Origin: Minisyncoccota bacterium
GTDB taxonomy: Bacteria; Patescibacteriota; Minisyncoccia; JAHIHE01; JAGLIN01
Assembly: GCA_041661265.1 (NCBI GenBank)
Contig: JBAZUT010000008.1
Coordinates: 1,134 to 65,133 of the forward strand
Direction of reading: 5' to 3'
Length of the DNA stretch: 64,000 nt
Below the pieces are notes generated by a model, which saw only the letters and a list, made by a program, of their open reading frames with translations, searched no databases and was not told the origin of the DNA. How positions within the stretch are numbered: position 1 is the first letter of the stretch; each line of letters starts with the position of its first letter. Made by a program: the position numbers and the translations under genes. Positions 2,349 through 14,851 of this stretch are shown here, in pieces.

Positions 2349-3122
2349 ATGTCAGACAATGATCCGGAAAGGTCAAAAAAAGCCAAAAAAATGGTTCTCT
2401 TCTACCTTTTGTTCGCGGTGCTGGTCTATCTTCTTGGAATAGTTAATGCAATTGTACTGATGGCTATTCTGGTGATCGGCCCGAAGATTGTCCGATACAT
2501 AAACGCAAAAAGAGGAACACCCGCGGGTGAAGGGATAGCGGCTAAGCTGAATTTTGGCAAGATCTTCAAAACTTTGTTATTTGTTGCACTTGTTGCCGTG
2601 ATCCTGTATTTTCTCATTTCATATCTTATGAGTATGGATACGTCGGAAAATAAAGGTCCATTGAATAGCGTGATCTATGTTGAAAGCCAGGAAGGCGCTG
2701 GAATAGTGAATAACAACGGCACCTATGGGATCCAGCTTGCAACCGGAGGCGCGACAACCGGAACGACTTTCATCATCAGAACAAAGGAAACTGTGACAGG
2801 CTGGCCTGCATTCGGGGCCGATGTATATTCTCCAAAAGGAGGTTCGACGTTGAAGGTGTCATATATTGATGCGGACAATTTGAAGAATAGCATTCGTTTT
2901 CAAGAGGTTTCAATTCCGGCCAACTATAGCTTCGGGTATTCGAATAAATACAAGCTAAGCGATTATCGCGGTTGGATCAAGAACGGGACGAGTGAGGAAG
3001 TCGTGAGCAAGGGAAATCTTCCTCGCAAAGATCCGATAAGGCATGACATAGAGCTTGAGGTATATGTGGCTCCAAACAGCTACGTTGAACTCAGCAATAT
3101 GATTTTGCGCAGAAACTGGTAG
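2349..3122 (+). CDS. Hypothetical membrane protein (two N-terminal TM helices, Gly/Thr-rich extracytoplasmic domain)
   Basis: ORF with hydrophobic segments FYLLFAVLVYLLGIVNAIVLMAILVIG and LLFVALVAVILYFLISYL. No recognisable motif. Confidence 0.4.
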   Translation: MSDNDPERSKKAKKMVLFYLLFAVLVYLLGIVNAIVLMAILVIGPKIVRYINAKRGTPAGEGIAAKLNFGKIFKTLLFVALVAVILYFLISYLMSMDTSENKGPLNSVIYVESQEGAGIVNNNGTYGIQLATGGATTGTTFIIRTKETVTGWPAFGADVYSPKGGSTLKVSYIDADNLKNSIRFQEVSIPANYSFGYSNKYKLSDYRGWIKNGTSEEVVSKGNLPRKDPIRHDIELEVYVAPNSYVELSNMILRRNW

Positions 3123-3148
3123 GAATAACAATTCCTACTTTTTTTATT
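3121..3148 (+). terminator. Rho-independent terminator (AGGAAT-aaca-ATTCCT plus T-run)
   Basis: Hairpin overlapping the stop codon of 2349..3122, followed by ACTTTTTTTATT. Confidence 0.45.
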
Positions 3149-3787
3149 GGGGAAAAAAGCCTTGGTATCAGCCGGTGTGTGCGCCTGCCTGCTCGCCTCG
3201 CTGTCAGCATCCGGCGAAGCGGGCCGGAGGGTAGCCGTTATGGTTCGACCTGCCTTCGCCAATACTTCGACAAGGCAAGCAGGTTCACCATGACAAATAC
3301 TCACAGCGCTAATTAGTTTCCGTTGAAATAGCGGTAATTTCAGGTGTCTTTGCGAGGCTCATCAGAGCCGTGGCAATCCCTATTCTATGCAAATTATGCT
3401 TTATTATAAGAGTTTTATCGGCTTAGTTTTGGGATTGCTTCGTTGTTGTTACTCCTCGCAATGACGAAATTTATGGCTATTTCATCAGGAATTAATTAGG
3501 TTACTTCGGTACTATGCGAGAGCTTCGTCTTGTCTTTAATGACAAATTTAAACCTTGAAATTAAAGCCGGAATTTGTCCAATCTATCATAAATAACCGAG
3601 AAGCAGTTCTGACGGATCAGTGTGGACTATTCAGCATATAAGCCTGTTTCTTTCTTTTTGATTTTGTGTTATAATGAAGCCAGTTACGATGCGAGCGCGA
3701 AGGTGCGAAATTTTTTGAAGTGGAAGTTTTCAAAGACAAAAATAAAACCGTAATGTTCATTTCCGACCTAATTTATTTTATAATACT

Positions 3788-6100
3788 ATGAACATAAATT
3801 TAAAAGAAAAAATAAAAAATATGATGCATTCTTTCAACTTTGGAAAAATCAAAGAAAGCGAAGTAACCGGAAAAAAGGGAAAGCATATTTCAGTTTTGAA
3901 GATGCTTTTTGTTTTTGTGTCCATGCTGGCCTTGCCTGTTCATATGGCAAATGCGGTATGGTACAAACCATGGACATGGACACTGAGGGGCGTTGGAGAA
4001 GAAATACTGGAGGCAATTTTATTCGGTTTTAACTTGATCGTCTATAATCTCGGCAACTTTGCCCTGAATATAGCCGGACAGCTGGTCCATTTTGGAGCGT
4101 GGCTCGTCGATCTCATGATGGACCAGGGAATATACAAGGCGGTTTTGGTTGATTCCACAGCCATCAAGATCGGATGGGAAACTATCAGGGATTTTTGCAA
4201 CATGTTTTTCATTTTTTTCCTGCTCATCGTAGCATTCGCAACAGTACTTCGGATCAGCGAATATAGCGCGAAAGTCATACTTCCGAAGTTTCTGATCGCG
4301 ATCTTTATGATCAATTTCAGCATGGAGATCACGAAGCTCGTGATCGATTTCGGACAGGTTTTTATGTATGAGATCAGGGGCTGGATGGGTGATTTTTCCG
4401 GAACGACGGGAGGAGGAAGCAGCCTCACTTCGATCGTGGATTATTTCAATGAATATTTCAATGCAAGTGCAACGAACATTACGGCAGATTCGGCCATAGC
4501 TATTCTTTTTGCGGCCGCCTATTCTTTCATGCTCGGATTCACCTATATCATGATGGCGGGATTCCTTCTTATCCGACTGCTGATGTTCGCTGTTCTGATG
4601 ATCCTCTCTCCTTTTGCCTTTTTCGCGAATATTTTTCCGGGGACAAGGCACTATTCCAGCGATTGGTGGAGATCCATAATGAAATATTCTCTTTTCGGTC
4701 CGATATTCATTTTCTTCGTTTTCATATCCGCGACCATGGCCTTTGAACTTACAAACAATTACAATCCTGCGGCAGTCGTTCCTGCCGGATATGCGCAGAT
4801 CGAAGCCGTGAAAGGACTCATCCCGAAGCTTATTCCGAATGTTATCGCGCTGATGATGCTTTGGATGGCAATTCCGATCACTCAGAAACTGGGAATTGCC
4901 GGTTCGAGCAGACTGATCGGCGGAACGCTCGGTCTTGGCACTGTGGCCATGGCAAGCTATGGCGCGACGAAGCTTGCAGGAGGATGGGGAAAGAAAGCGG
5001 TTGAAGCACCGGCGAGCAGGTTACATGCTTACGGTATGGGCCAGAACGGAAGATACAAAGCAGCGGTGGATAAATTAAGCGGCGGATTGAAAAAACTGCC
5101 CCTTGGCACAGGAAGAATATTCATTCAATACGAAGCTGACAAGGCCGTACAGAAAAAGGAAGATGTTGCAAAGCATCAGAAGATCATGGAAAATCTTTCC
5201 GACAAAGATAAGAAATCATATGTCGATAGCTTCTCGATCGATCGAAAAGCAAAAGCAGATGCTCAGCAGGCTATGTTTAATTTGCTTGCAAAGGATTCCG
5301 GCAAGGGTTTGACGGATGCAAGATTGCAGAAGATGGGTTATGAGAAAGAAGTGAACGGACAGCAGGTGTTTGATAAGAAGAAATTTGAAAGCGATTATAA
5401 TCGGGCAAAGGCTTATGGACATGACACGGGCACTTTGGAGACCTACAGGCCTGATATGTTGACGAAAGATGATGACATAAGGGAAAAAGTCAAAAAAGTT
5501 GTCCAGGATGGAAACTATAAGAACATAAAGAGCGATGCTCTCGCAAATGAGACCGTTGCTAAGGAATTGGAAGGATTGATTGGCAAGAAAAAATATGATG
5601 AATTTATAAACAACAAGTCACAAGAAGAAAAATCAAGCCTTTCAAAGCATAAAGAGAAAAAATTAGCAGTGGAATATGCAACGCTATCTCCTGCTGATTT
5701 ACAAAAAAAACAGGTTGAGATTGCAAGCCTTGCAAGTCCAGATGATAAAGTGGAAGCCATGAAACAGATGACGGGAGTTGTAAATGGTCAAATTCAATAT
5801 GCGCCAAACATCAACAACAGGCCGGTTGTTAATTTGGACGTTGTAAATGAAGTCATGGATAGCATGTCCAAGGATCAATTCCTTGATTTGAATAAAGATT
5901 TCTTTGAGGAATATGGGCACATGGTTTCAGATGCTAATATTGACCATATTGCCAAATTTGGCGATACGGAACAGCTTAAATCAATGAAAGAAGCGATTGT
6001 AAGGGCACAAGCAGGAACTAATAATTTTTATCGCGGAAATCAGCTGGTGGATGCTCAAAAATTAACAGATAGACTGAATAAAATAAATAGTAAAATATAA
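3788..6100 (+). CDS. VirB6/TrbL-like type IV secretion polytopic membrane protein with a long charged C-terminal extension
   Basis: About 8 predicted TM helices in residues 30-400, then a ~370-aa K/D/E-rich hydrophilic tail. Sits in an operon with PrgI-like and VirB4 genes. An extended -10 (tgttataat) lies at ~3674-3682. Confidence 0.45.
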   Translation: MNINLKEKIKNMMHSFNFGKIKESEVTGKKGKHISVLKMLFVFVSMLALPVHMANAVWYKPWTWTLRGVGEEILEAILFGFNLIVYNLGNFALNIAGQLVHFGAWLVDLMMDQGIYKAVLVDSTAIKIGWETIRDFCNMFFIFFLLIVAFATVLRISEYSAKVILPKFLIAIFMINFSMEITKLVIDFGQVFMYEIRGWMGDFSGTTGGGSSLTSIVDYFNEYFNASATNITADSAIAILFAAAYSFMLGFTYIMMAGFLLIRLLMFAVLMILSPFAFFANIFPGTRHYSSDWWRSIMKYSLFGPIFIFFVFISATMAFELTNNYNPAAVVPAGYAQIEAVKGLIPKLIPNVIALMMLWMAIPITQKLGIAGSSRLIGGTLGLGTVAMASYGATKLAGGWGKKAVEAPASRLHAYGMGQNGRYKAAVDKLSGGLKKLPLGTGRIFIQYEADKAVQKKEDVAKHQKIMENLSDKDKKSYVDSFSIDRKAKADAQQAMFNLLAKDSGKGLTDARLQKMGYEKEVNGQQVFDKKKFESDYNRAKAYGHDTGTLETYRPDMLTKDDDIREKVKKVVQDGNYKNIKSDALANETVAKELEGLIGKKKYDEFINNKSQEEKSSLSKHKEKKLAVEYATLSPADLQKKQVEIASLASPDDKVEAMKQMTGVVNGQIQYAPNINNRPVVNLDVVNEVMDSMSKDQFLDLNKDFFEEYGHMVSDANIDHIAKFGDTEQLKSMKEAIVRAQAGTNNFYRGNQLVDAQKLTDRLNKINSKI

Positions 6101-7892: not shown

Positions 7893-8344
7893 ACTGAAAA
7901 ATGAAAAGCTAAAAATGAAAAACGACAGAGAAAAATTTAAAAATGAATTTAAGGCGCGAATCTACAACTTCATATTGAATCTGATAAAATTTATCGACCA
8001 CTTACCTTCCGACAGAGCTACGGATATAATCGCCAAACAGCTCCTCAGAAGCGGCACAAGCATCGGCGCAAACTATATCGAAGCGCAAGCGGCAAGCTCA
8101 AAGAAGGACTTTACTAACTTTTTCCACTATTCCTTAAAATCGGCCAATGAAAGCAAGTTCTGGATCGCGATCTTAAGAGATAGCAAAAAGGCTGGAAAAG
8201 AAGAGGCTGAAGCTTTATTGAAAGAGCTTATAGAAATTTCAAACATACTGGGCTCAAGCATTATCACGCTGAAGAACAAAAGATAGTCCATCTTATATAT
8301 AATATTTTTTCGTTTTTCATTTTAAATTTTAAATTTGAAATATG
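7893..8344. repeat. Direct repeat copy 1 (~450 bp) carrying a four-helix-bundle gene, bounded by 17-bp terminal inverted repeats TAAAAATGAAAAACGA
   Basis: Near-identical to 9019..9480. TIRs at 7909-7925 and 8310-8326. The copy ends in the ATG (atgtcaa) of the downstream gene. Confidence 0.8.
7915..8286 (+). CDS. Four-helix-bundle protein (23S rRNA IVS protein / Avd-like family), copy A
   Basis: LLRSGTSIGANYIEAQAASSKKDF...SKFWIAILRD. 99% identical to 9047..9418. Confidence 0.7.
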   Translation: MKNDREKFKNEFKARIYNFILNLIKFIDHLPSDRATDIIAKQLLRSGTSIGANYIEAQAASSKKDFTNFFHYSLKSANESKFWIAILRDSKKAGKEEAEALLKELIEISNILGSSIITLKNKR

Positions 8345-9016
8345 TCAACTCCTGAAAAAAAACCGGTTAAGGGTCTCAGCACCCAAAGATATCTTGAAAT
8401 AGCCGAGATAAAGGATAGCGTTGTCGTGATGAAAAACGGAAACTTGAGGGCTGTTCTCATGGTGTCCTCGATAAATTTCGCCTTGAAATCCATCGATGAG
8501 CAGGATGCGATCATCTATCATTTCCAAAGTTTTCTGAATTCTTTGGATTTTTCCATCCAGATCCTCATCAACTCAAGGAAGCTCAATATTGAGAATTATC
8601 TGGACGTTCTGAGAGAAACGGAGAAAAGGCAGACGAATGAGCTCCTGCGAATGCAGACCGCAAGCTATATCGAATACATCCAGGGGCTGGTCAAAATGGC
8701 GAACATTGTCAGCAAGACTTTTTATATCGTTGTTCCCTTCTCCGCCGCTGAAACGAAAGAAGGCGGGCTTTCAAAACTGAAAGCGTCTTCAACCGCGACA
8801 CAGATCATTTCCAGCAGGGAAGTTTTTGAAAAATATAGAGATCAGCTTTTTCAGAGGGTCGATCATATAATCGAGAATCTGAGCGGAACTGGGCTTCGAA
8901 TGACAATGCTTAACACGCAGGAACTTATTGAATTGTATTATAATCTCTATAACCCCGATCTCGCGGACAAGAAAGGGCTGGCCGACATCGAAGAACTTGA
9001 CCTTGCGGTGGAGTAA
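8342..9016 (+). CDS. VirB4 N-terminal-domain-like protein (CagE/TrbE/VirB4 N-domain-like), encoded separately from the ATPase
   Basis: Segment EIKDSVVVMKNGNLRAVLMVSSINFALKSIDEQDAIIYHFQSFLNSL resembles VirB4/TrbE N-domains. No Walker motifs. Assignment is tentative. Confidence 0.35.
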   Translation: MSTPEKKPVKGLSTQRYLEIAEIKDSVVVMKNGNLRAVLMVSSINFALKSIDEQDAIIYHFQSFLNSLDFSIQILINSRKLNIENYLDVLRETEKRQTNELLRMQTASYIEYIQGLVKMANIVSKTFYIVVPFSAAETKEGGLSKLKASSTATQIISSREVFEKYRDQLFQRVDHIIENLSGTGLRMTMLNTQELIELYYNLYNPDLADKKGLADIEELDLAVE

Positions 9017-9018
9017 AC

Positions 9019-9480
9019 TTACGTATTGAAAAATGAAAAGCTAAAAATGAAAAACGACAGAGAAAAATTTAAAAATGAATTTAAGGCGCGAATCTACAAC
9101 TTCATATTGAATCTGATAAAATTCATAGATAACCTGCCCTCCGACAGAGCTACGGATATAATCGCCAAACAGCTCCTCAGAAGCGGCACAAGCATCGGCG
9201 CAAACTATATCGAAGCACAAGCGGCAAGCTCAAAGAAGGACTTTACTAACTTTTTCCACTATTCCTTAAAATCGGCCAATGAAAGCAAGTTCTGGATCGC
9301 GATCTTAAGAGATAGCAAAAAGGCTGGAAAAGAAGAGGCTGAAGCTTTATTGAAAGAGCTTATAGAAATTTCAAACATACTGGGCTCAAGCATTATCACG
9401 CTGAAGAACAAAAGATAGTCCATCTTATATATAATATTTTTTCGTTTTTCATTTTAAATTTTAAATTTGAAATATGTCAA
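9019..9480. repeat. Direct repeat copy 2 (~450 bp) carrying a four-helix-bundle gene, TIR-bounded
   Basis: Near-identical to 7893..8344. TIRs at 9041-9057 and 9442-9458. Confidence 0.8.
9047..9418 (+). CDS. Four-helix-bundle protein (23S rRNA IVS protein / Avd-like family), copy B
   Basis: ORF 9026 uses a TTG start; the ATG at 9047 gives the same 123-aa protein as copy A (one H to N difference). Confidence 0.7.
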   Translation: MKNDREKFKNEFKARIYNFILNLIKFIDNLPSDRATDIIAKQLLRSGTSIGANYIEAQAASSKKDFTNFFHYSLKSANESKFWIAILRDSKKAGKEEAEALLKELIEISNILGSSIITLKNKR

Positions 9481-11333
9481 TTTTCAGCAGTTTGCTGCCA
9501 TCCGGAAATAAGGCAAAAGAAAATAATTCCGCTTCGCCGAAGAAAGGAACCGCAACAGGCGAATCGAGCGCTGTGATCGCTTCGGAGAGGATATACAAGC
9601 AGGGACTTACGACCGTAAAGGACATCATCGCTCCCGCCGCTTTCAGGATCGAAGCGGATTATGTGATGATAAACCGGAAAATGGCGGCGACGTTCTTCGT
9701 TTATGCCTATCCGAGATATTTGCAGACGAATTGGTTCTCCCCGATCGTCAATCTTGACGCGACATTCGACATTGCGATGTTCATCCATCCGCAGAGCAGC
9801 GCGGAGATATTGAGGCATCTTCTCAAGGTTGTAACGCAGATCCAGTCGCAGATCTCCATGAACGAGGAAAGAGGAATGGTCAGGGATCCGATCCTCGAGA
9901 CCGCATATCAGGACGTTGAGAATCTCCGAGATGACCTCCAGCAGGGTATCGAGCATTTTTTCCAGTTCGGGCTCTATATGACAATCTATGGCGATACGAA
10001 AGACGAACTGATGAAGGTTGAGACGCAGATAGAGGCGATCCTTGAGGCAAAGCTCATCTATGTGAAGCCGGCGATAATGCAAATGGAGGAGGCTTTCAAT
10101 TCGACGCTTCCGCTGGCGAGCGACAAGCTCATGATCGTGAACAATATGAACACTTCTCCCCTTTCCACGACTTTCCCGTTCGTTTCGAGCGATCTCACTT
10201 CGAATCAGGGCATTCTCTATGGGATAAACAGGCACAACAACAGTCTGGTGCTTTTTGACAGGTTTTCGATGGAAAATGCGAACATGGTCATTTTCGCAAA
10301 GTCCGGCGCAGGAAAAAGCTATACGGTCAAATTGGAAATACTGCGAAGTTTGATGGTTGAAACGGATGTCATTGTCATAGACCCTGAAGATGAATATAAG
10401 CATCTTTGCGAGACCGTCGGCGGCACTTTCATGAGGATCTCTCTTTCGGCGAAGCATCACATTAATCCTTTTGATCTTCCGACTGCGCTTGAGGATGAAG
10501 CTCCCGCGGACGTGCTTCGTACGGCGATCGCCAATGTCTCCGGACTTCTCAAGGTTATGCTCGGAAAGCTTTCCGCAGAGGAAGACTCGATCTTGGACAA
10601 GGCCATTGCGGAAACCTATGCCATAAAAGACATCACTCCGGAAGCGGAATTCGCGAAGCTTGAACCTCCGACAATGACAGATCTGCAGATGGTGCTTGAG
10701 AATATGAGCGGCGCAGAAAGCCTCTCGACCAGGATCAAGAAATACACTGAAGGAACTTTTGCAGGATTTTTGAACCACAGGACGAATGTCAGCGTGGACA
10801 AAGGCCTCGTCGTTTTCAACATCAGGGACATGGAAGAAGAGCTCCGTCCGGTCGCCATGTATCTCATTCTGCACTATATCTGGACGCTGATCAGGTCCGA
10901 AAGGAAAAGAAGGATGCTTGTGGTCGATGAGGCGTGGTGGATGATGCAGCACGAAGACGCGGCCTCATTTCTCTTTTCGATCGCAAAACGATGCAGGAAA
11001 TATTTCTTGGGCCTCACGACGATCACCCAGGACGTCACCGACTTCATGGGTTCGAGATATGGAAAGCCGATCGTCACCAATTCCTCGATCCAGCTTCTCC
11101 TGAAGCAGTCCCCTGCCGCCATCAAGGTCATCGTGGACACATTCTATCTTACGGATGAGGAGAAGTTCTTGCTATTGGAAAGCAATGTCGGAGAAGGGAT
11201 ATTCTTTGCAGGGGCAAAGCGCGCCGCGATCAAAGTGGTCGCTTCATATTCCGAGGATCAGATCATAACTTCCGATCCCGCCCAGCTCCTTGAGATCGAA
11301 AAGGCAAAGAAAGAACTGGAAGATGTGGCGTAA
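9474..11333 (+). CDS. virB4: VirB4/TraE/PrgJ-type type IV secretion ATPase
   Basis: Gram-positive-type N-terminus KDIIAPAAFRIEADYV...YPRYLQTNWFSPIVNLD. Walker A is FAKSGAGKSY, Walker B is MLVVDEAWWMM. Confidence 0.85.
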   Translation: MSIFSSLLPSGNKAKENNSASPKKGTATGESSAVIASERIYKQGLTTVKDIIAPAAFRIEADYVMINRKMAATFFVYAYPRYLQTNWFSPIVNLDATFDIAMFIHPQSSAEILRHLLKVVTQIQSQISMNEERGMVRDPILETAYQDVENLRDDLQQGIEHFFQFGLYMTIYGDTKDELMKVETQIEAILEAKLIYVKPAIMQMEEAFNSTLPLASDKLMIVNNMNTSPLSTTFPFVSSDLTSNQGILYGINRHNNSLVLFDRFSMENANMVIFAKSGAGKSYTVKLEILRSLMVETDVIVIDPEDEYKHLCETVGGTFMRISLSAKHHINPFDLPTALEDEAPADVLRTAIANVSGLLKVMLGKLSAEEDSILDKAIAETYAIKDITPEAEFAKLEPPTMTDLQMVLENMSGAESLSTRIKKYTEGTFAGFLNHRTNVSVDKGLVVFNIRDMEEELRPVAMYLILHYIWTLIRSERKRRMLVVDEAWWMMQHEDAASFLFSIAKRCRKYFLGLTTITQDVTDFMGSRYGKPIVTNSSIQLLLKQSPAAIKVIVDTFYLTDEEKFLLLESNVGEGIFFAGAKRAAIKVVASYSEDQIITSDPAQLLEIEKAKKELEDVA

Positions 11334-11396
11334 AAAAACTCAAAAGTAAAAACTCAAAAGTTAAAATTGCAATTGAAAATTAAAAAGTGATAATTT

Positions 11397-11437
11397 GTTG
11401 TCATCCTGATCCGCCGATTGGCGGAGAAGGATCCCGT
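11397..11437 (+). repeat. Box A repeat (gttgtcatcctgaTCCGCCgattGGCGGAgaaggatcccgt), upstream flank of a GIY-YIG mini-element
   Basis: Identical copy at 13184-13224. Contains a perfect 6-bp stem hairpin. Confidence 0.7.
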
Positions 11438-11503
11438 CAATTATTTCGTATCGCTATAAATTTCACAATTCATTGTTAATATAGGATTTCAAGATGATAC
11501 AAT

Positions 11504-11782
11504 ATGAATAGATATTTTGTATATATAGCTTCAAACAGCAGAAATACAGTTCTATATACCGGTATCACAAATGACATAAATCGAAGAATGTTTCAGCACA
11601 AAAACAAGCTGGTAAAAGGTTTCACAGAAAAATATAATGTTGACAAGTTAGTATATTGCGAAGAGTTTAATTCGCCAGGAGAAGCAATCTCCGCCGAAAA
11701 GAAAATTAAAGGATGGACAAGAAAGAAAAAGATAGATTTGATCAAAAGCATTAATCCCGAATTCGCAGACTTGTTGATATAA
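11504..11782 (+). CDS. GIY-YIG nuclease family protein (small UPF0213/YhbQ-like)
   Basis: YFVYIASNSRNTVLYTGITNDINRRMFQHKN...EEFNSPGEAISAEKKIKGWTRKKK is a canonical GIY...YTG motif. Confidence 0.8.
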   Translation: MNRYFVYIASNSRNTVLYTGITNDINRRMFQHKNKLVKGFTEKYNVDKLVYCEEFNSPGEAISAEKKIKGWTRKKKIDLIKSINPEFADLLI

Positions 11783-11784
11783 AA

Positions 11785-11825
11785 CCGGGATTCTTCACTC
11801 CGCTCCGCTGCATTCAGAATGACAT
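11785..11825 (+). repeat. Box B repeat (ccgggattcttcac.ccgctccgct.cattcagaatgacat), downstream flank of a GIY-YIG mini-element
   Basis: Copies at 13724-13764 (direct) and 13259-13303 (inverted). Confidence 0.7.
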
Positions 11826-12059
11826 CATTATTTAAGCAAAAATCAGACTTCTAGACTTGATTGAGACTTGAGAATTGGTAATTGAAAATTAATAAAATAT
11901 AAAGTCTAAAATCTCGAAATTCGAATTATGGATAAGACAAGAAAATAACTCAATATATTTTCGTCTTCCATCAGATCATCAAGGTTCATTGATGATTCGA
12001 TGAAAGCCGGCAATTGCAGCTAAGCTCTGTTTTGGGAGTAATATTATTATCTATAAAAA

Positions 12060-13031
12060 ATGGAAAGTGGAAGAATAAAAAGTGGTGTATCCAGAATTGC
12101 CAAAAATGAAAGTGCTAATCGAGTAGCGAATGCAACTCCTTTTGTTGGTGGAGCTAAAAGAATGGCAGAGAGTGCAGCGGGAAAAACATTGGCCGGAGAG
12201 AAATTATCAGGCAGGGATAGGTGGAAACATGGCGCTGGAGGAGCAGCTGATCTGGCTTTGGATTTTACCGGAATTGGAGAGGTTGAGAAAGGCGCAAAAA
12301 TGGCATATATTGGAAAAAAGATAGCAAGCGGTCTGGAAGAAAATACAAAAAAGGAAGCCACAAGAGAAATTAAAGACCAAGTCATTAAAAGAGGCATTGC
12401 GGCTGATAATTATCGTATCAAAAGCCAAGCCGGCAGAAATGAGGAAGCGCAAAGGATAAAAAGCGAAGCTCAAAGAGAAGCCGAGAGGCATATGAATCAT
12501 GAATTCCAAAAATCGGCAAGAATGAGCGGAGTGAAAGGGAGAGTGGCGTCAAAAATCGCCAGCCGGGGCGTATCGGAAGCAGCCTATCAAATTGCCTCCA
12601 GGTTGAGCGAAAAGGCGAAACAAGGGGGGCATTGGGCGGTGATCGTTTTTATTGTAACTTTACTGATAGCTATAATAGTTGACGCGTTAGATATTGTAGG
12701 CACTCTTCTTATTGAAACGATCCTAGGCTGGCTTATTATTTTTCTGATTAACACACTTCTTTCATTGATCATAAATATTTTTTGGATGTTGCTTGCAGGT
12801 GGCGGACATAGCAAGTTTTTTTGGAAGATTCTTGTCAGGTATATCATATTTGGATTGATACTTGATTCCATCCCAATTATAGAATTATTTCCATTTACGG
12901 TTTTTATGGTATGCTGGAACTGGTATGATTATAGCAAAGAAAGAAGTGAAGCGAAGCAAGAATTGAAAAGATTTTCAAAAGTTTATGCAAAAACGGGAGA
13001 AATAAAAGGACAATCCATGAAATATGCTTAG
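12060..13031 (+). CDS. Hypothetical membrane protein (charged N-terminal half, 4 TM helices in C-terminal half) bracketed by the two GIY-YIG elements
   Basis: ORF with GHWAVIVFIVTLLIAIIVDALDIVGTLLIETILGWLIIFLINTLLSLIINIFWMLLAGG. No recognisable family. Confidence 0.4.
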   Translation: MESGRIKSGVSRIAKNESANRVANATPFVGGAKRMAESAAGKTLAGEKLSGRDRWKHGAGGAADLALDFTGIGEVEKGAKMAYIGKKIASGLEENTKKEATREIKDQVIKRGIAADNYRIKSQAGRNEEAQRIKSEAQREAERHMNHEFQKSARMSGVKGRVASKIASRGVSEAAYQIASRLSEKAKQGGHWAVIVFIVTLLIAIIVDALDIVGTLLIETILGWLIIFLINTLLSLIINIFWMLLAGGGHSKFFWKILVRYIIFGLILDSIPIIELFPFTVFMVCWNWYDYSKERSEAKQELKRFSKVYAKTGEIKGQSMKYA

Positions 13032-13183
13032 AGAATATCGCAAAAAGATCCTGATATTATTTTTTGATAATACCTAGTCAATGTTGACTAAAGAGCAGGG
13101 CAGAAGGAAGCGGATGAGTTAAAATTTCCAATTTTGAATTGAGCTAAGCATCGTACTTAACTTCAAGACTCAAATTAATAACC

Positions 13184-13379
13184 GTTGTCATCCTGATCCG
13201 CCGATTGGCGGAGAAGGATCCCGTATTTAAATATGGATATCACGTTCAAAAAAAATGGACTCATTGTCATTCTGAACAGAGCGGAGCGAAGTGAAGAATC
13301 CCAGTAGAAAAAAATAGCGCCTTATGTAACGGGACTCTTCGACCCGCTTCGCCGAAGGTTGACAGCGAGGCGAGCGGGC
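13184..13379. repeat. Composite repeat block: box A (13184-13224), inverted box B (13259-13303), inverted box C (13341-13379)
   Basis: All three dispersed-repeat families co-occur here, upstream of the second GIY-YIG gene. Confidence 0.65.
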
Positions 13380-13442
13380 TCAGAGTGACAAGTATTGCAT
13401 AGAAGGGATATTTGCTTTTACAATACCTCAAGACAATATAGT

Positions 13443-13721
13443 ATGAATAAATACTATGTTTATATAGCTTCGAACAGCAGAAATACAGTTTTATATACCG
13501 GCATTACACATAACATAAATCGAAGAATGTTCGAACATAAAAACAAATTAGTTAAAGGTTTTACAGAAAAATATAATGTTGATAAATTAGTGTATTGTGA
13601 AGAATTTAATTCTCCGGGAGAAGCAATTGCCGCCGAAAAGAAAATTAAAGGATGGACAAGAAAGAAAAAGATAGATTTGATCGAAGGGATTAATCCCGAA
13701 TTTGCAGACTTGTTGATATAA
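13443..13721 (+). CDS. GIY-YIG nuclease family protein, second copy (~92% aa identity to 11504..11782)
   Basis: MNKYYVYIASNSRNTVLYTGITHNINRRMFEHKN... ORF 13395 has an upstream extension; the likely start is the ATG at 13443. Confidence 0.8.
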   Translation: MNKYYVYIASNSRNTVLYTGITHNINRRMFEHKNKLVKGFTEKYNVDKLVYCEEFNSPGEAIAAEKKIKGWTRKKKIDLIEGINPEFADLLI

Positions 13722-13852
13722 AACCGGGATTCTTCATTTCGCTTTGCTTCATTCAGAATGACATTATTGTTTAAGCAAATGAAAATTAGGGTTTCATTCA
13801 AAATCCAAAATTGGAAATTAAAAATTAACTTATAATATTAACATCTAAAACT

Positions 13853-14851
13853 ATGTTTATCAGAAAACGCACCTTGCTCCTGCTTCTCCTTGTTGCATCT
13901 GCCACATTTGCTTACCCTGCTTTTGCCCAATATACCCCAATGGTCAGGATTCCCGGGCTCACCGCCGCGGGAAGCATAAATCTTTCAATGTATCTGGTGG
14001 GATTATATAATTTTATGGTCAGTATTGTGGGAATAGTTGCTGTCATGATGATGATCGTGGGAGGCATGAGATATATAACTGCTGCGGGAAGTTCAACGGC
14101 GATTAGCGATGCAAAAGATATTATCTCAAATGCCGTAGCCGGTCTCGTTATTGCCATTTTTGCCTGGATCATTGTTGCCGCAATAAATCCCGACGTCTTG
14201 TTCATAAAGAAACCCGGATCGGGATTCAAAAATGCTTCATATTTATCTTGTACGAAGCAATATACGGCCGCGATATGCAAGTGCAATGATGACGTGGGTT
14301 TGGGAGTTTTTGCATCTCCGACCGCCTGCAATGATGCATGCAAAGCCGGAAATCATTGCGGCGGTTTGGTGAATAGTTGTATCAGGGATGGAGTGAATGA
14401 AACGACCAGTCCGAAATTTAATACAGCTCCGAATAACGGAAAATGTTTATGTGCTAATGGAGTGGATGTTGTGCCTATACCGCCAGCTACATGTCAAGCG
14501 ACTTGCGCTATAGCAAATTGTATAAAGGCTGATGCAAGAATTGGAAATACAGGAATTACAGGTTTTGTCTCAGGAGTGGTAGATCAAAAAAGGACAACTA
14601 TATACATAAAAAATCCTTGCACGGATTCTTTGGCATTTGATGCTTACAAAACATTTGCTGTAAATCCCTATACGTGCAGTTGGGATTTTGAAAGCGACGG
14701 CACACCTGACAATCCCTCGTGTTTTACAGGATTTTGTCCGGTAAGTGGCGTCTTTATCGCTGGAACTTATACAGCAACGCTTACAGTGACTGACTCTGTT
14801 ACTGGAGCAAGTTCTGCGGACACTGTTATTTATGAAGCAATATATCCATAA
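13853..14851 (+). CDS. VirB2/TrbC-like pilin core with a ~210-aa Cys-rich C-terminal extension (PKD-like tail)
   Basis: Signal peptide, then a pilin-like core (INLSMYLVGLYNFMVSIVGIVAVMMMIVGGMRYITAAGSS...AGLVIAIFAWIIVAAI). Downstream are at least 14 Cys residues and a TGFCPVSGVFIAGTYTATLTVTDSVTG segment. Confidence 0.5.
   Translation: MFIRKRTLLLLLLVASATFAYPAFAQYTPMVRIPGLTAAGSINLSMYLVGLYNFMVSIVGIVAVMMMIVGGMRYITAAGSSTAISDAKDIISNAVAGLVIAIFAWIIVAAINPDVLFIKKPGSGFKNASYLSCTKQYTAAICKCNDDVGLGVFASPTACNDACKAGNHCGGLVNSCIRDGVNETTSPKFNTAPNNGKCLCANGVDVVPIPPATCQATCAIANCIKADARIGNTGITGFVSGVVDQKRTTIYIKNPCTDSLAFDAYKTFAVNPYTCSWDFESDGTPDNPSCFTGFCPVSGVFIAGTYTATLTVTDSVTGASSADTVIYEAIYP

Follow-up and report, generated by a model that had tools for sequence, protein, structure and literature searches.

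The 64,000 nucleotide (nt) window analysed here, from contig JBAZUT010000008.1 of a Minisyncoccota bacterium, contains two short GIY-YIG nuclease genes and a set of hairpin repeats associated with them. The genes sit in two intergenic spacers around a membrane-protein gene that is part of a Patescibacteria gene cluster resembling a type IV secretion system (T4SS). The initial annotation had described two open reading frames (ORFs) of about 92 amino acids (aa), around 92% identical, each with a box A upstream and a box B downstream. All of this is found in the sequence. Both ORFs match the Pfam GIY-YIG domain, with 84 of 92 aa (91%) and 244 of 276 nt identical between them, box A is identical at 41 of 41 positions, and a box B starts 1 nt past each stop codon (Table 1). 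The description of the boxes is amended, in that A and B are not separate motifs but members of one family, to which box B', box C and a solo copy are added. The ORFs are very probably ssnA genes of the Ssn family and the boxes the hairpin repeats (SRM) that accompany such genes, with two paralogues present among six cognate repeats.

Table 1. Features of the locus, named according to the ssnA and SRM assignments proposed in the text (CM, covariance model)
Feature	Position	Strand	Details
Solo SRM, CGTCATTGCGAGGAG...CGAAGCAATCCCA	3429-3469	-	Other long intergenic region, 8 kb from ssnA; CM R1 21.7 bits, E 0.01, outside training alignment
224-aa protein gene	8342-9016		
23S-rRNA-IVP-family gene (PF05635)	9026-9418		Between the 224-aa protein and VirB4 genes
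VirB4/TraG-like ATPase gene	9474-11333		
SRM box A1, GTTGTCATCCTGATCCGCCGATTGGCGGAGAAGGATCCCGT	11397-11437 (feature span 11396-11438)	+	CM R1 34.6 bits, E 1.5e-5
ssnA copy 1	11504-11782	+	92-aa single-domain GIY-YIG nuclease; PF01541 E 5e-18
SRM box B1	11784-11824 (feature span to 11827)	-	1 nt past ssnA copy 1 stop; CM R1 35.2 bits, E 1.1e-5
Shared downstream flank	11828-11911	+	Matches 13767-13850 and the L169 spacer
Enclosed membrane-protein (TM) gene	12060-13031	+	323 aa
SRM box A2	13184-13224 (feature span 13183-13225)	+	Identical to A1; left end of composite unit common to L167, L168 and L084
SRM box B'	13262-13305	+	Box-B-type, forward; CM R1 37.2 bits, E 4e-6
SRM box C	13328-13393	-	Outer stem ACTCT/AGAGT, 39-nt inner hairpin; CM R1 25.4 bits, E 0.0016, outside training alignment
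ssnA copy 2	13443-13721	+	92 aa when begun at the ATG homologous to that of copy 1; Pfam E 2e-17
SRM box B2	13723-13763 (feature span to 13766)	-	1 nt past ssnA copy 2 stop; right end of composite unit; CM R1 36.6 bits, E 5.4e-6
T4SS pilin gene	13853-14851		

The Ssn system has already been described (Chenal et al. 2025, Nat Commun 16:2388, PMC11893778); its occurrence in Patescibacteria and the repeat variant found here are what is added. SsnA of Neisseria meningitidis is a 94 aa single-domain GIY-YIG protein (cd10448) that binds the hairpin repeat NTS (CGTCATTCCCGCGMAVGCGGGAATCYRG) only as single-stranded DNA (ssDNA) and cuts a few nt upstream of it. Cutting depends on the three nt 5' of the palindrome and binding on a C 3' of it, while neither the reverse strand, double-stranded DNA (dsDNA) nor RNA is cut. 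SRMs are near 71% of Ssn homologues, being on both sides in 42%. The NTS-ssnA-NTS arrangement was likened by its authors to an insertion sequence (IS), as a hypothesis, and compared with the REP/RAYT systems. Patescibacteria and paralogues are not mentioned (PMC11893778).

PF01541 is the sole Pfam domain in the window ORFs, covering residues 4-77, and at 92 aa the ORFs are within the 150 aa limit applied to Ssn proteins. The N. gonorrhoeae SsnA orthologue used for comparison has 94 aa, with Y6, Y17 and E64 numbered as in PMC11893778 (locus L163, 1489-1773; loci are designated by L and a number). BLASTP aligns the window protein with it at 41% identity over 85 aa (residues 6-90 of 92; 76 bits, E 6e-25), which is inside the published limits for homologues (BLASTP E<1e-10, at least 75% coverage; PMC11893778) as judged against the gonococcal orthologue. 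The residues mutated in that study correspond to Y7, Y18 and E65 of the window proteins, and these are invariant in a 10-sequence alignment (A4), as are R28 and H32. At the sequence level the GIY-YIG fold is settled by the Pfam matches, the catalytic residues and the SsnA match. The source of the gonococcal orthologue and its NTS cluster, PLSDB entries NZ_CP119140.1 and NZ_CP119142.1 (L163), is labelled as N. gonorrhoeae plasmids, although these are actually 2.17-Mb chromosomes.

No specific family was found for the window proteins in an NCBIfam search. In the PDB, sequence matches are limited to the UPF0213 proteins BH0048 and EF2693 (1zg2, 1ywl), as could be expected of a housekeeping structure-specific repair nuclease of the UPF0213/YhbQ (Slx1-like) type with which the repeats have no connection. 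Although size and fold class are alike, the similarity is weak, at 25 and 22 bits compared with 76 bits to SsnA, and the repeat motif is tied to the gene ends in position and orientation across 80 loci, which makes this explanation very unlikely. UPF0213 proteins are not known to have oriented hairpin repeats associated with them. The genes are filed with Ssn/SRM because of the 41% identity and 76-bit score of the SsnA match, the invariant catalytic residues and the low scores of the UPF0213 matches.

Boxes A and B have one motif in opposite orientations (TGTCAyyCTGA ... GAAGrrTCCCrGT). With box B reverse-complemented, the family plan opens with TGTCA and closes with TCCC, and between these a 5-nt stem and its complement enclose a variable inner part with GA on either side. 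In box A these are TGTCA, the stem ATCCT, tandem GA/GA and an inner stem TCCGCC/GGCGGA, then C. Box A (GTTGTCATCCTGATCCGCCGATTGGCGGAGAAGGATCCCGT) is present twice in the window at 100% identity, with zero copies expected from shuffled sequences. Box B1 is an inverted repeat of 13265-13305 in B', and B' and C together form an inverted SRM pair without a gene. This pair lies upstream of copy 2 and separates box A from the ATG by 218 nt there, compared with 66 nt in copy 1, and the two spacers are unrelated. Outer stems change by compensation (ATCCT/AGGAT, ATTCT/AGAAT, ACTCT/AGAGT and ATTGC/GCAAT). In all seven SRMs of the window the palindrome is preceded by GTC and followed by C, the positions critical for cutting and binding in PMC11893778.

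A covariance model (R1) was built from 67 aligned motifs (alignment A5). Scanning the window with R1 identified seven copies at E <=0.01, six of them within 11396-13766 and one at 3429-3469 on the minus strand. Since the detector required the outer stem, the covariation there is partly circular. The inner pairs were not imposed by the detector and covary in the 67 SRMs (GC 45/AU 13/UA 5 and CG 37/GC 11/UA 8), with pairing of 93.5% against 18-48% when partners are slid; covariation across the family lends support to the stems. Folded as ssDNA, box A has an energy of -10.5 kcal/mol (z -3.8) and box C of -13 kcal/mol (z -1.9). The boxes match no known RNA family, an Rfam scan of the whole window returning two tRNAs only, and a terminator scan of 11300-13900 found none. 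Literature searches with the repeat words gave chance matches only. Promoter-like hexamers are present just 5' of each ATG; these are not taken as promoters, as transcription would begin inside the ORF.

A metagenome scan with ssnA copy 1 identified 80 further loci, and about 80 distinct genes were compared. Typically these have (T)GTCATyCTGAG-loop-CGAAGrATCT, then 0-10 nt, the ATG, and after the stop codon directly the reverse complement of the motif. With a strict detector the forward motif is found upstream of 70 genes and the reverse motif downstream of 51, in 26 cases within 6 nt of the stop codon. A k-mer orientation test replaced a tabulation of flanking bases from the 'best hairpin', which was too noisy through its selection of inner stems. 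In this test GTCAT is present in 50 of 80 upstream 60-nt segments (complement, 10 of 80) and ATGAC in 36 of 79 downstream segments (GTCAT, 12 of 79), against a background of about 0.05 per 60 nt. A loose hairpin detector (GTCA, 5-bp stem, C) has a whole-locus background of 247, compared with 118-284 for permuted prefixes, and is therefore unfit for density estimates and valid only for the positional test beside genes.

Other arrangements are seen beside some of these genes. Three full SRM copies lie in a row in L109 (~690-790), and L108 has repeated half-motifs ending TCAGAATGACA (~3870-4000 and 4285-4370); together these resemble the clustering of bacterial interspersed mosaic elements (BIME). 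A second small hairpin, CTCTCGCGAATGCGAGAG, directly follows many of the ssnA-adjacent SRMs, both upstream (L105, L129, L138, L140 and L161) and downstream (L107 and L138), and some SRM variants may include it as an additional part. Hairpins of this type are absent from the window. In L084 a further solo box A (38 of 39 nt identical to the window copy) is followed by a B'-like motif at ~1040-1120, about 700 nt downstream of the ssnA unit beside the tRNA gene, so that this population has multiple copies of box A.

Three results weigh against the Ssn/SRM assignment. The published criterion places an SRM within 500 bp on each side of the gene, by the string HGTCWYN(0-2)YYVSBRHN(0-5)WNVSBRGN(0-2)RNCYNB. 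This string recovers nine canonical NTS in the gonococcal control locus, but it has no match in any of the six boxes or in any of 86 SRMs next to ssnA in related loci. In boxes B1, B' and B2 folding is through the 5-bp outer stem only, with ssDNA energies no better than those of shuffled sequences. The window protein shares only 41% identity with the characterised Neisseria enzyme, and specificity varies among homologues (PMC11893778). Because the published string misses them, the repeats are regarded as a variant class that the Ssn proteins encoded beside them presumably recognise. The commonest form is GTC-ATTCT-GA-GCGAAGC-GA-AGAAT-C, in which the functional hallmarks are kept and the stem differs.

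In both systems the protein consists of a single GIY-YIG domain, about 92-94 aa long, with the catalytic Y/Y/E residues conserved, the gene is flanked by oriented hairpins with GTC(A/T) 5' and C 3' of the palindrome, and repeats are dispersed in intergenic DNA (PMC11893778). The host here is instead an ultra-small bacterium of the Patescibacteria, or candidate phyla radiation (CPR), and the window has two diverged paralogues 1.9 kb apart. Its repeats have a CTGA...GAAG core, with a 5-bp stem and tandem G.A, and often long inner hairpins. The SRM abutting the stop codon is reversed here, whereas in the gonococcal locus it is a forward NTS, and there are 7 SRMs per 64 kb compared with hundreds in each Neisseria genome.

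By analogy with the family (PMC11893778), an SRM in the window would fold into a hairpin when its DNA becomes single-stranded. Binding of Ssn to the hairpin would depend on the stem sequence and on the C that directly follows the palindrome on its 3' side. The cut would be made in the same strand, a few nt 5' of the GTC preceding the palindrome, with no action on dsDNA, RNA or the complementary strand. Forward SRMs are A1, A2 and B' on the plus strand and B1, C and B2 on the minus strand. Upstream of each gene is a forward SRM, and at its stop codon a reverse one. Cuts in either strand would therefore fall just outside the SRM-ssnA-SRM unit, 5' of it on the strand concerned, and would leave the unit intact. 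The role in this host could be restriction of incoming ssDNA, as in Neisseria, self-propagation, or both.

Free-standing homing endonucleases such as the phage T4 Seg proteins or I-TevI share the GIY-YIG catalytic domain and, like the window genes, are placed sporadically between conserved genes. Enzymes of this type would spread by 'intronless homing', in which dsDNA of the empty allele is cleaved and the double-strand break repaired. TIGR01453, a group I intron endonuclease model, does match the window protein weakly (E 0.007, 16 bits, cut-off 56). The homing enzymes have a C-terminal DNA-binding domain, however, while the 92 aa window proteins are the catalytic domain alone and are far closer to SsnA, of the ssDNA-specific Ssn clade, at 76 bits. 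SsnA showed no dsDNA activity (PMC11893778), and the hairpin repeats are also found solo, far from any gene. It is therefore highly improbable that these are homing endonucleases.

The locus was compared with 80 orthologous VirB4 loci from genome assemblies, with VirB4 protein identities of 57-86%. These keep the order 224-aa protein, VirB4, (membrane protein) and pilin, and none of the 80 has a GIY-YIG gene in the spacers equivalent to those of the window. Homologues of the enclosed TM gene are present between the VirB4 and pilin genes in L006, L007, L008, L012 and L016, with a 308-aa counterpart in L003, all without ssnA. In L003, one of the two closest relatives at 84% VirB4 identity, the spacer between VirB4 and the TM gene is 60 nt and has no motif copies, compared with 726 nt in the window. 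Because relatives hold its homologue at the same place without ssnA, the enclosed gene is a resident of the T4SS cluster rather than cargo, and the nuclease units are additions to it.

The initial annotation had proposed that the two units could form a composite structure able to mobilise this gene. Two similar units in direct orientation do bracket it, but the homologues at the same position without ssnA contradict the proposal. The three-gene order is ancestral, in L169 only the spacer unit is found at the same place, and among strain-level contigs the whole bracketed segment has no other context. A composite transposon is thus the least likely of the explanations considered. The enclosed protein has a sub-threshold match to Pre-toxin TG (PF14449) at residues 17-84 (E 8e-4, 19.8 bits, cut-off 23.5); after this come a coiled-coil-like region and, at the C-terminus, transmembrane segments.

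SRMs are also present in the corresponding T4SS spacers of L007, L009, L012, L013, L042 and L052. By our own tally there is no enrichment in the relatives' spacers (9 of 41 hits in ~19% of the sequence), so no link between SRMs and the T4SS is claimed. The TM-to-pilin spacer of L003 holds a different gene, a 118-aa repeat-rich coiled-coil ORF at 12905-13261, and this spacer seems to accept insertions repeatedly.

Divergence between the two copies of ssnA is 0.039 at nonsynonymous sites (dN) and 0.67 at synonymous sites (dS), with a dN/dS of 0.06. Both are under purifying selection, and the dS shows that they are old, not recent. The genes have a GC content of 30-33%, compared with 41% for the window, and homologues are 78% identical in Elusimicrobia, 72% in Firestonebacteria and 66% in Nitrospinae. 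The close homologues across phyla and the low gene GC suggest horizontal spread of ssnA.

The blastn match of copies 1 and 2 begins 15 nt upstream of the ATG and ends 129 nt after the stop codon; it extends beyond box B and, for copy 2, as far as the pilin start codon. Because it continues into the upstream region of the downstream gene, we infer that the copies are probably related by a segmental duplication larger than the SRM-bounded unit. The closer relative L169 has an [A - 66 nt - ssnA - B] unit in the orthologous TM-to-pilin spacer. The L169 flanks are 71-76% identical to those of copy 2 in an alignment and 82-86% by blastn, and the right flanks of the window copies and L169 are 71% identical. 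The L169 unit itself resembles copy 1 (84%, no gaps), compared with copy 2 at 80% with 152 gap columns. In the simplest reading of these sequences, an [A - 66 nt - ssnA - B] unit would have entered the TM-to-pilin spacer in an ancestor common to the window and L169. A block of ~510 nt including flanks would then have been duplicated into the VirB4-to-TM spacer, and the TM-to-pilin original would later have been remodelled to the composite [A-B'-C-ssnA-B]. Box A is identical at 41 of 41 positions in A1, A2 and L167, where the adjacent spacers are unrelated, which points to constraint, gene conversion or a separate recent spread of the short motif.

Two other repeats are present next to copy 1. 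The 14-nt unit AAAAACTCAAAAGT is tandemly duplicated at 11334-11361, right after the VirB4 stop codon. A 30-nt AT-rich direct repeat brackets unit 1 (11364-11393 and 11873-11902; 77% identity) with an exact AATTGAAAATTAA core, of which a copy with one mismatch follows unit 2 (13809). This repeat may have been left by the segmental duplication or may be a promoter-like motif. As a target duplication AATTGAAAATTAA was rejected: exact copies are found only at 11371 and 11880, but there is no enrichment at two mismatches.

The age of the copies, the shared 129 nt past the stop codon, the unit at the orthologous site in L169 and the retention of other ssnA units at orthologous sites in related contigs could all be explained if an ordinary small nuclease gene had long ago been duplicated locally, in tandem or as part of a segment, with the boxes as conserved regulatory or terminator hairpins and no mobility. 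Several observations disagree with this. The 80 orthologous VirB4 loci have no such genes, a composite unit 91% identical to that of the window is found beside a tRNA-Val gene with homology stopping at the SRM edges, and box A is fully conserved between the copies and in L167 among unrelated spacers. No terminator-like sites were found, the boxes carry the orientation-specific unpaired GTC and C as NTS do, and close homologues are present across phyla (Elusimicrobia, Firestonebacteria and Nitrospinae). An immobile duplicated gene is therefore improbable, if less so than the homing, repair and composite transposon explanations. The initial annotation had associated such a duplication with just two copies and an identical arrangement in relatives; what is found is 80 loci without ssnA and related copies elsewhere.

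The composite unit [A-B'-C-ssnA-B] is complete in L167 and L168, where it lies beside a tRNA-Val(GAC) gene; L084 has only the part from box C onward, since the contig begins inside box C. These three loci derive from this metagenome and other metagenomes. Window positions 13187-13763 are 91% identical to L167 (495 of 543), with both flanks unrelated. Homology with L167 and L168 starts exactly at TTGTCATCC and homology with L084, L167 and L168 ends at ...AGAATGACA, these being the outer SRM edges. The same edge pattern is seen between L090 and L092, between two copies in L122 and two in L101, and on one side in L143/L147, L088/L090 and L085/window. The boundaries are 1-3 nt outside GTCAT, close to the in vitro cut position of SsnA, and no target-site duplication is seen at the compared unit edges. 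The same bounded unit is thus present in different genomic contexts in the window and in L167, L168 and L084, as for an insertion sequence, which supports the ability of SRM-bounded units to relocate as blocks.

It is possible, though rather less than an even chance, that the SRM-ssnA-SRM units are autonomous ssDNA-based IS-like elements with the 92-aa GIY-YIG nuclease as their sole protein. Their ends would be set by Ssn cuts 5' of the terminal SRMs, and short SRMs and gene-less pairs would be non-autonomous derivatives. This reading fits because of the sharp edges, the lack of target-site duplications, the identity of box A despite the dS of 0.67, the AT-rich genes and the close cross-phylum homologues.

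Other results count against high mobility. The pair of copies 1 and 2 is not in itself proof of SRM-bounded transposition, because the flanks beyond the SRMs are shared. A search among all loci with both flanks of every unit for an empty counterpart found only filled orthologues, and all strain-level contigs (pilin and TM proteins) are filled, agree with the window and break inside the repeats. Across 75-87% nt divergence several units have kept their orthologous sites, a pattern as consistent with stable or domesticated genes as with mobile ones. The 80 unfilled VirB4 loci are all at least 14% diverged in the VirB4 protein, and no relative was found among viral contigs. Only hydrolytic cleavage, and no strand-transfer chemistry, is known for GIY-YIG enzymes.

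The mobile or duplicating nuclease element proposed in the initial annotation is thus retained in part: the nuclease genes are bracketed by inverted repeats, are absent from 80 orthologous loci and have copies in other contexts. The suggestion that the element is recent is not upheld, given the dS, nor is a clean mobile relation between copies 1 and 2, given their shared 129-nt flank. The comparison of empty sites that it had recommended yields 80 empty orthologous loci and no empty site at strain level.

A close parallel to IS-like units of this kind is with the repetitive extragenic palindromic (REP) and BIME sequences and their REP-associated tyrosine transposases (RAYT, or TnpA-REP, which are IS200/IS605-related Y1 transposases). 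In both, a nuclease gene is bracketed by inverted copies of a hairpin that is recognised on ssDNA and has a conserved short motif 5' of it. Gene-less inverted pairs are present in both, B' and C being comparable to a REPIN, and no target-site duplication is seen. The enzymes differ, RAYT being an HUH/Y1 transposase with a covalent intermediate and Ssn an unrelated GIY-YIG hydrolytic fold. RAYT genes are usually single-copy, unlike the two ssnA here.

These comparisons add Patescibacteria and other uncultured lineages to the hosts of the Ssn/SRM system. The published SRM string does not find their commonest repeat type (GTCATyCTGAGCGAAGCGAAGrATC), and the reported numbers of genomes with SRMs are therefore probably too low. 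Tools that cut ssDNA with a new specificity could potentially come from each Ssn/SRM pair. Sharp boundaries at SRM edges in different contexts lend support, from sequence comparison, to the authors' hypothesis that NTS-ssnA-NTS is or was a mobile element; they add to the evidence for unit mobility and are not decisive. Ssn units also explain why a conserved T4SS operon has two unusual spacers of 0.7-0.8 kb, and why assemblies repeatedly break in them.

Away from the ssnA genes, the solo SRM lies in a 666-nt intergenic region (3122-3788) that also contains degenerate SRM-like stretches at ~3176-3235, 3240-3295, 3342-3382 and 3505-3545, one of which resembles the inner hairpin of box C. A tblastn search of this region found no ssnA remnant, and it may be a decayed SRM cluster. 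The PF05635 gene upstream of VirB4 is another sporadic small gene, without SRM flanks, inside which metagenome contigs break. Among the 80 VirB4 loci an equivalent is present in that spacer only in L062, and further upstream in L003, L026, L039 and L052.

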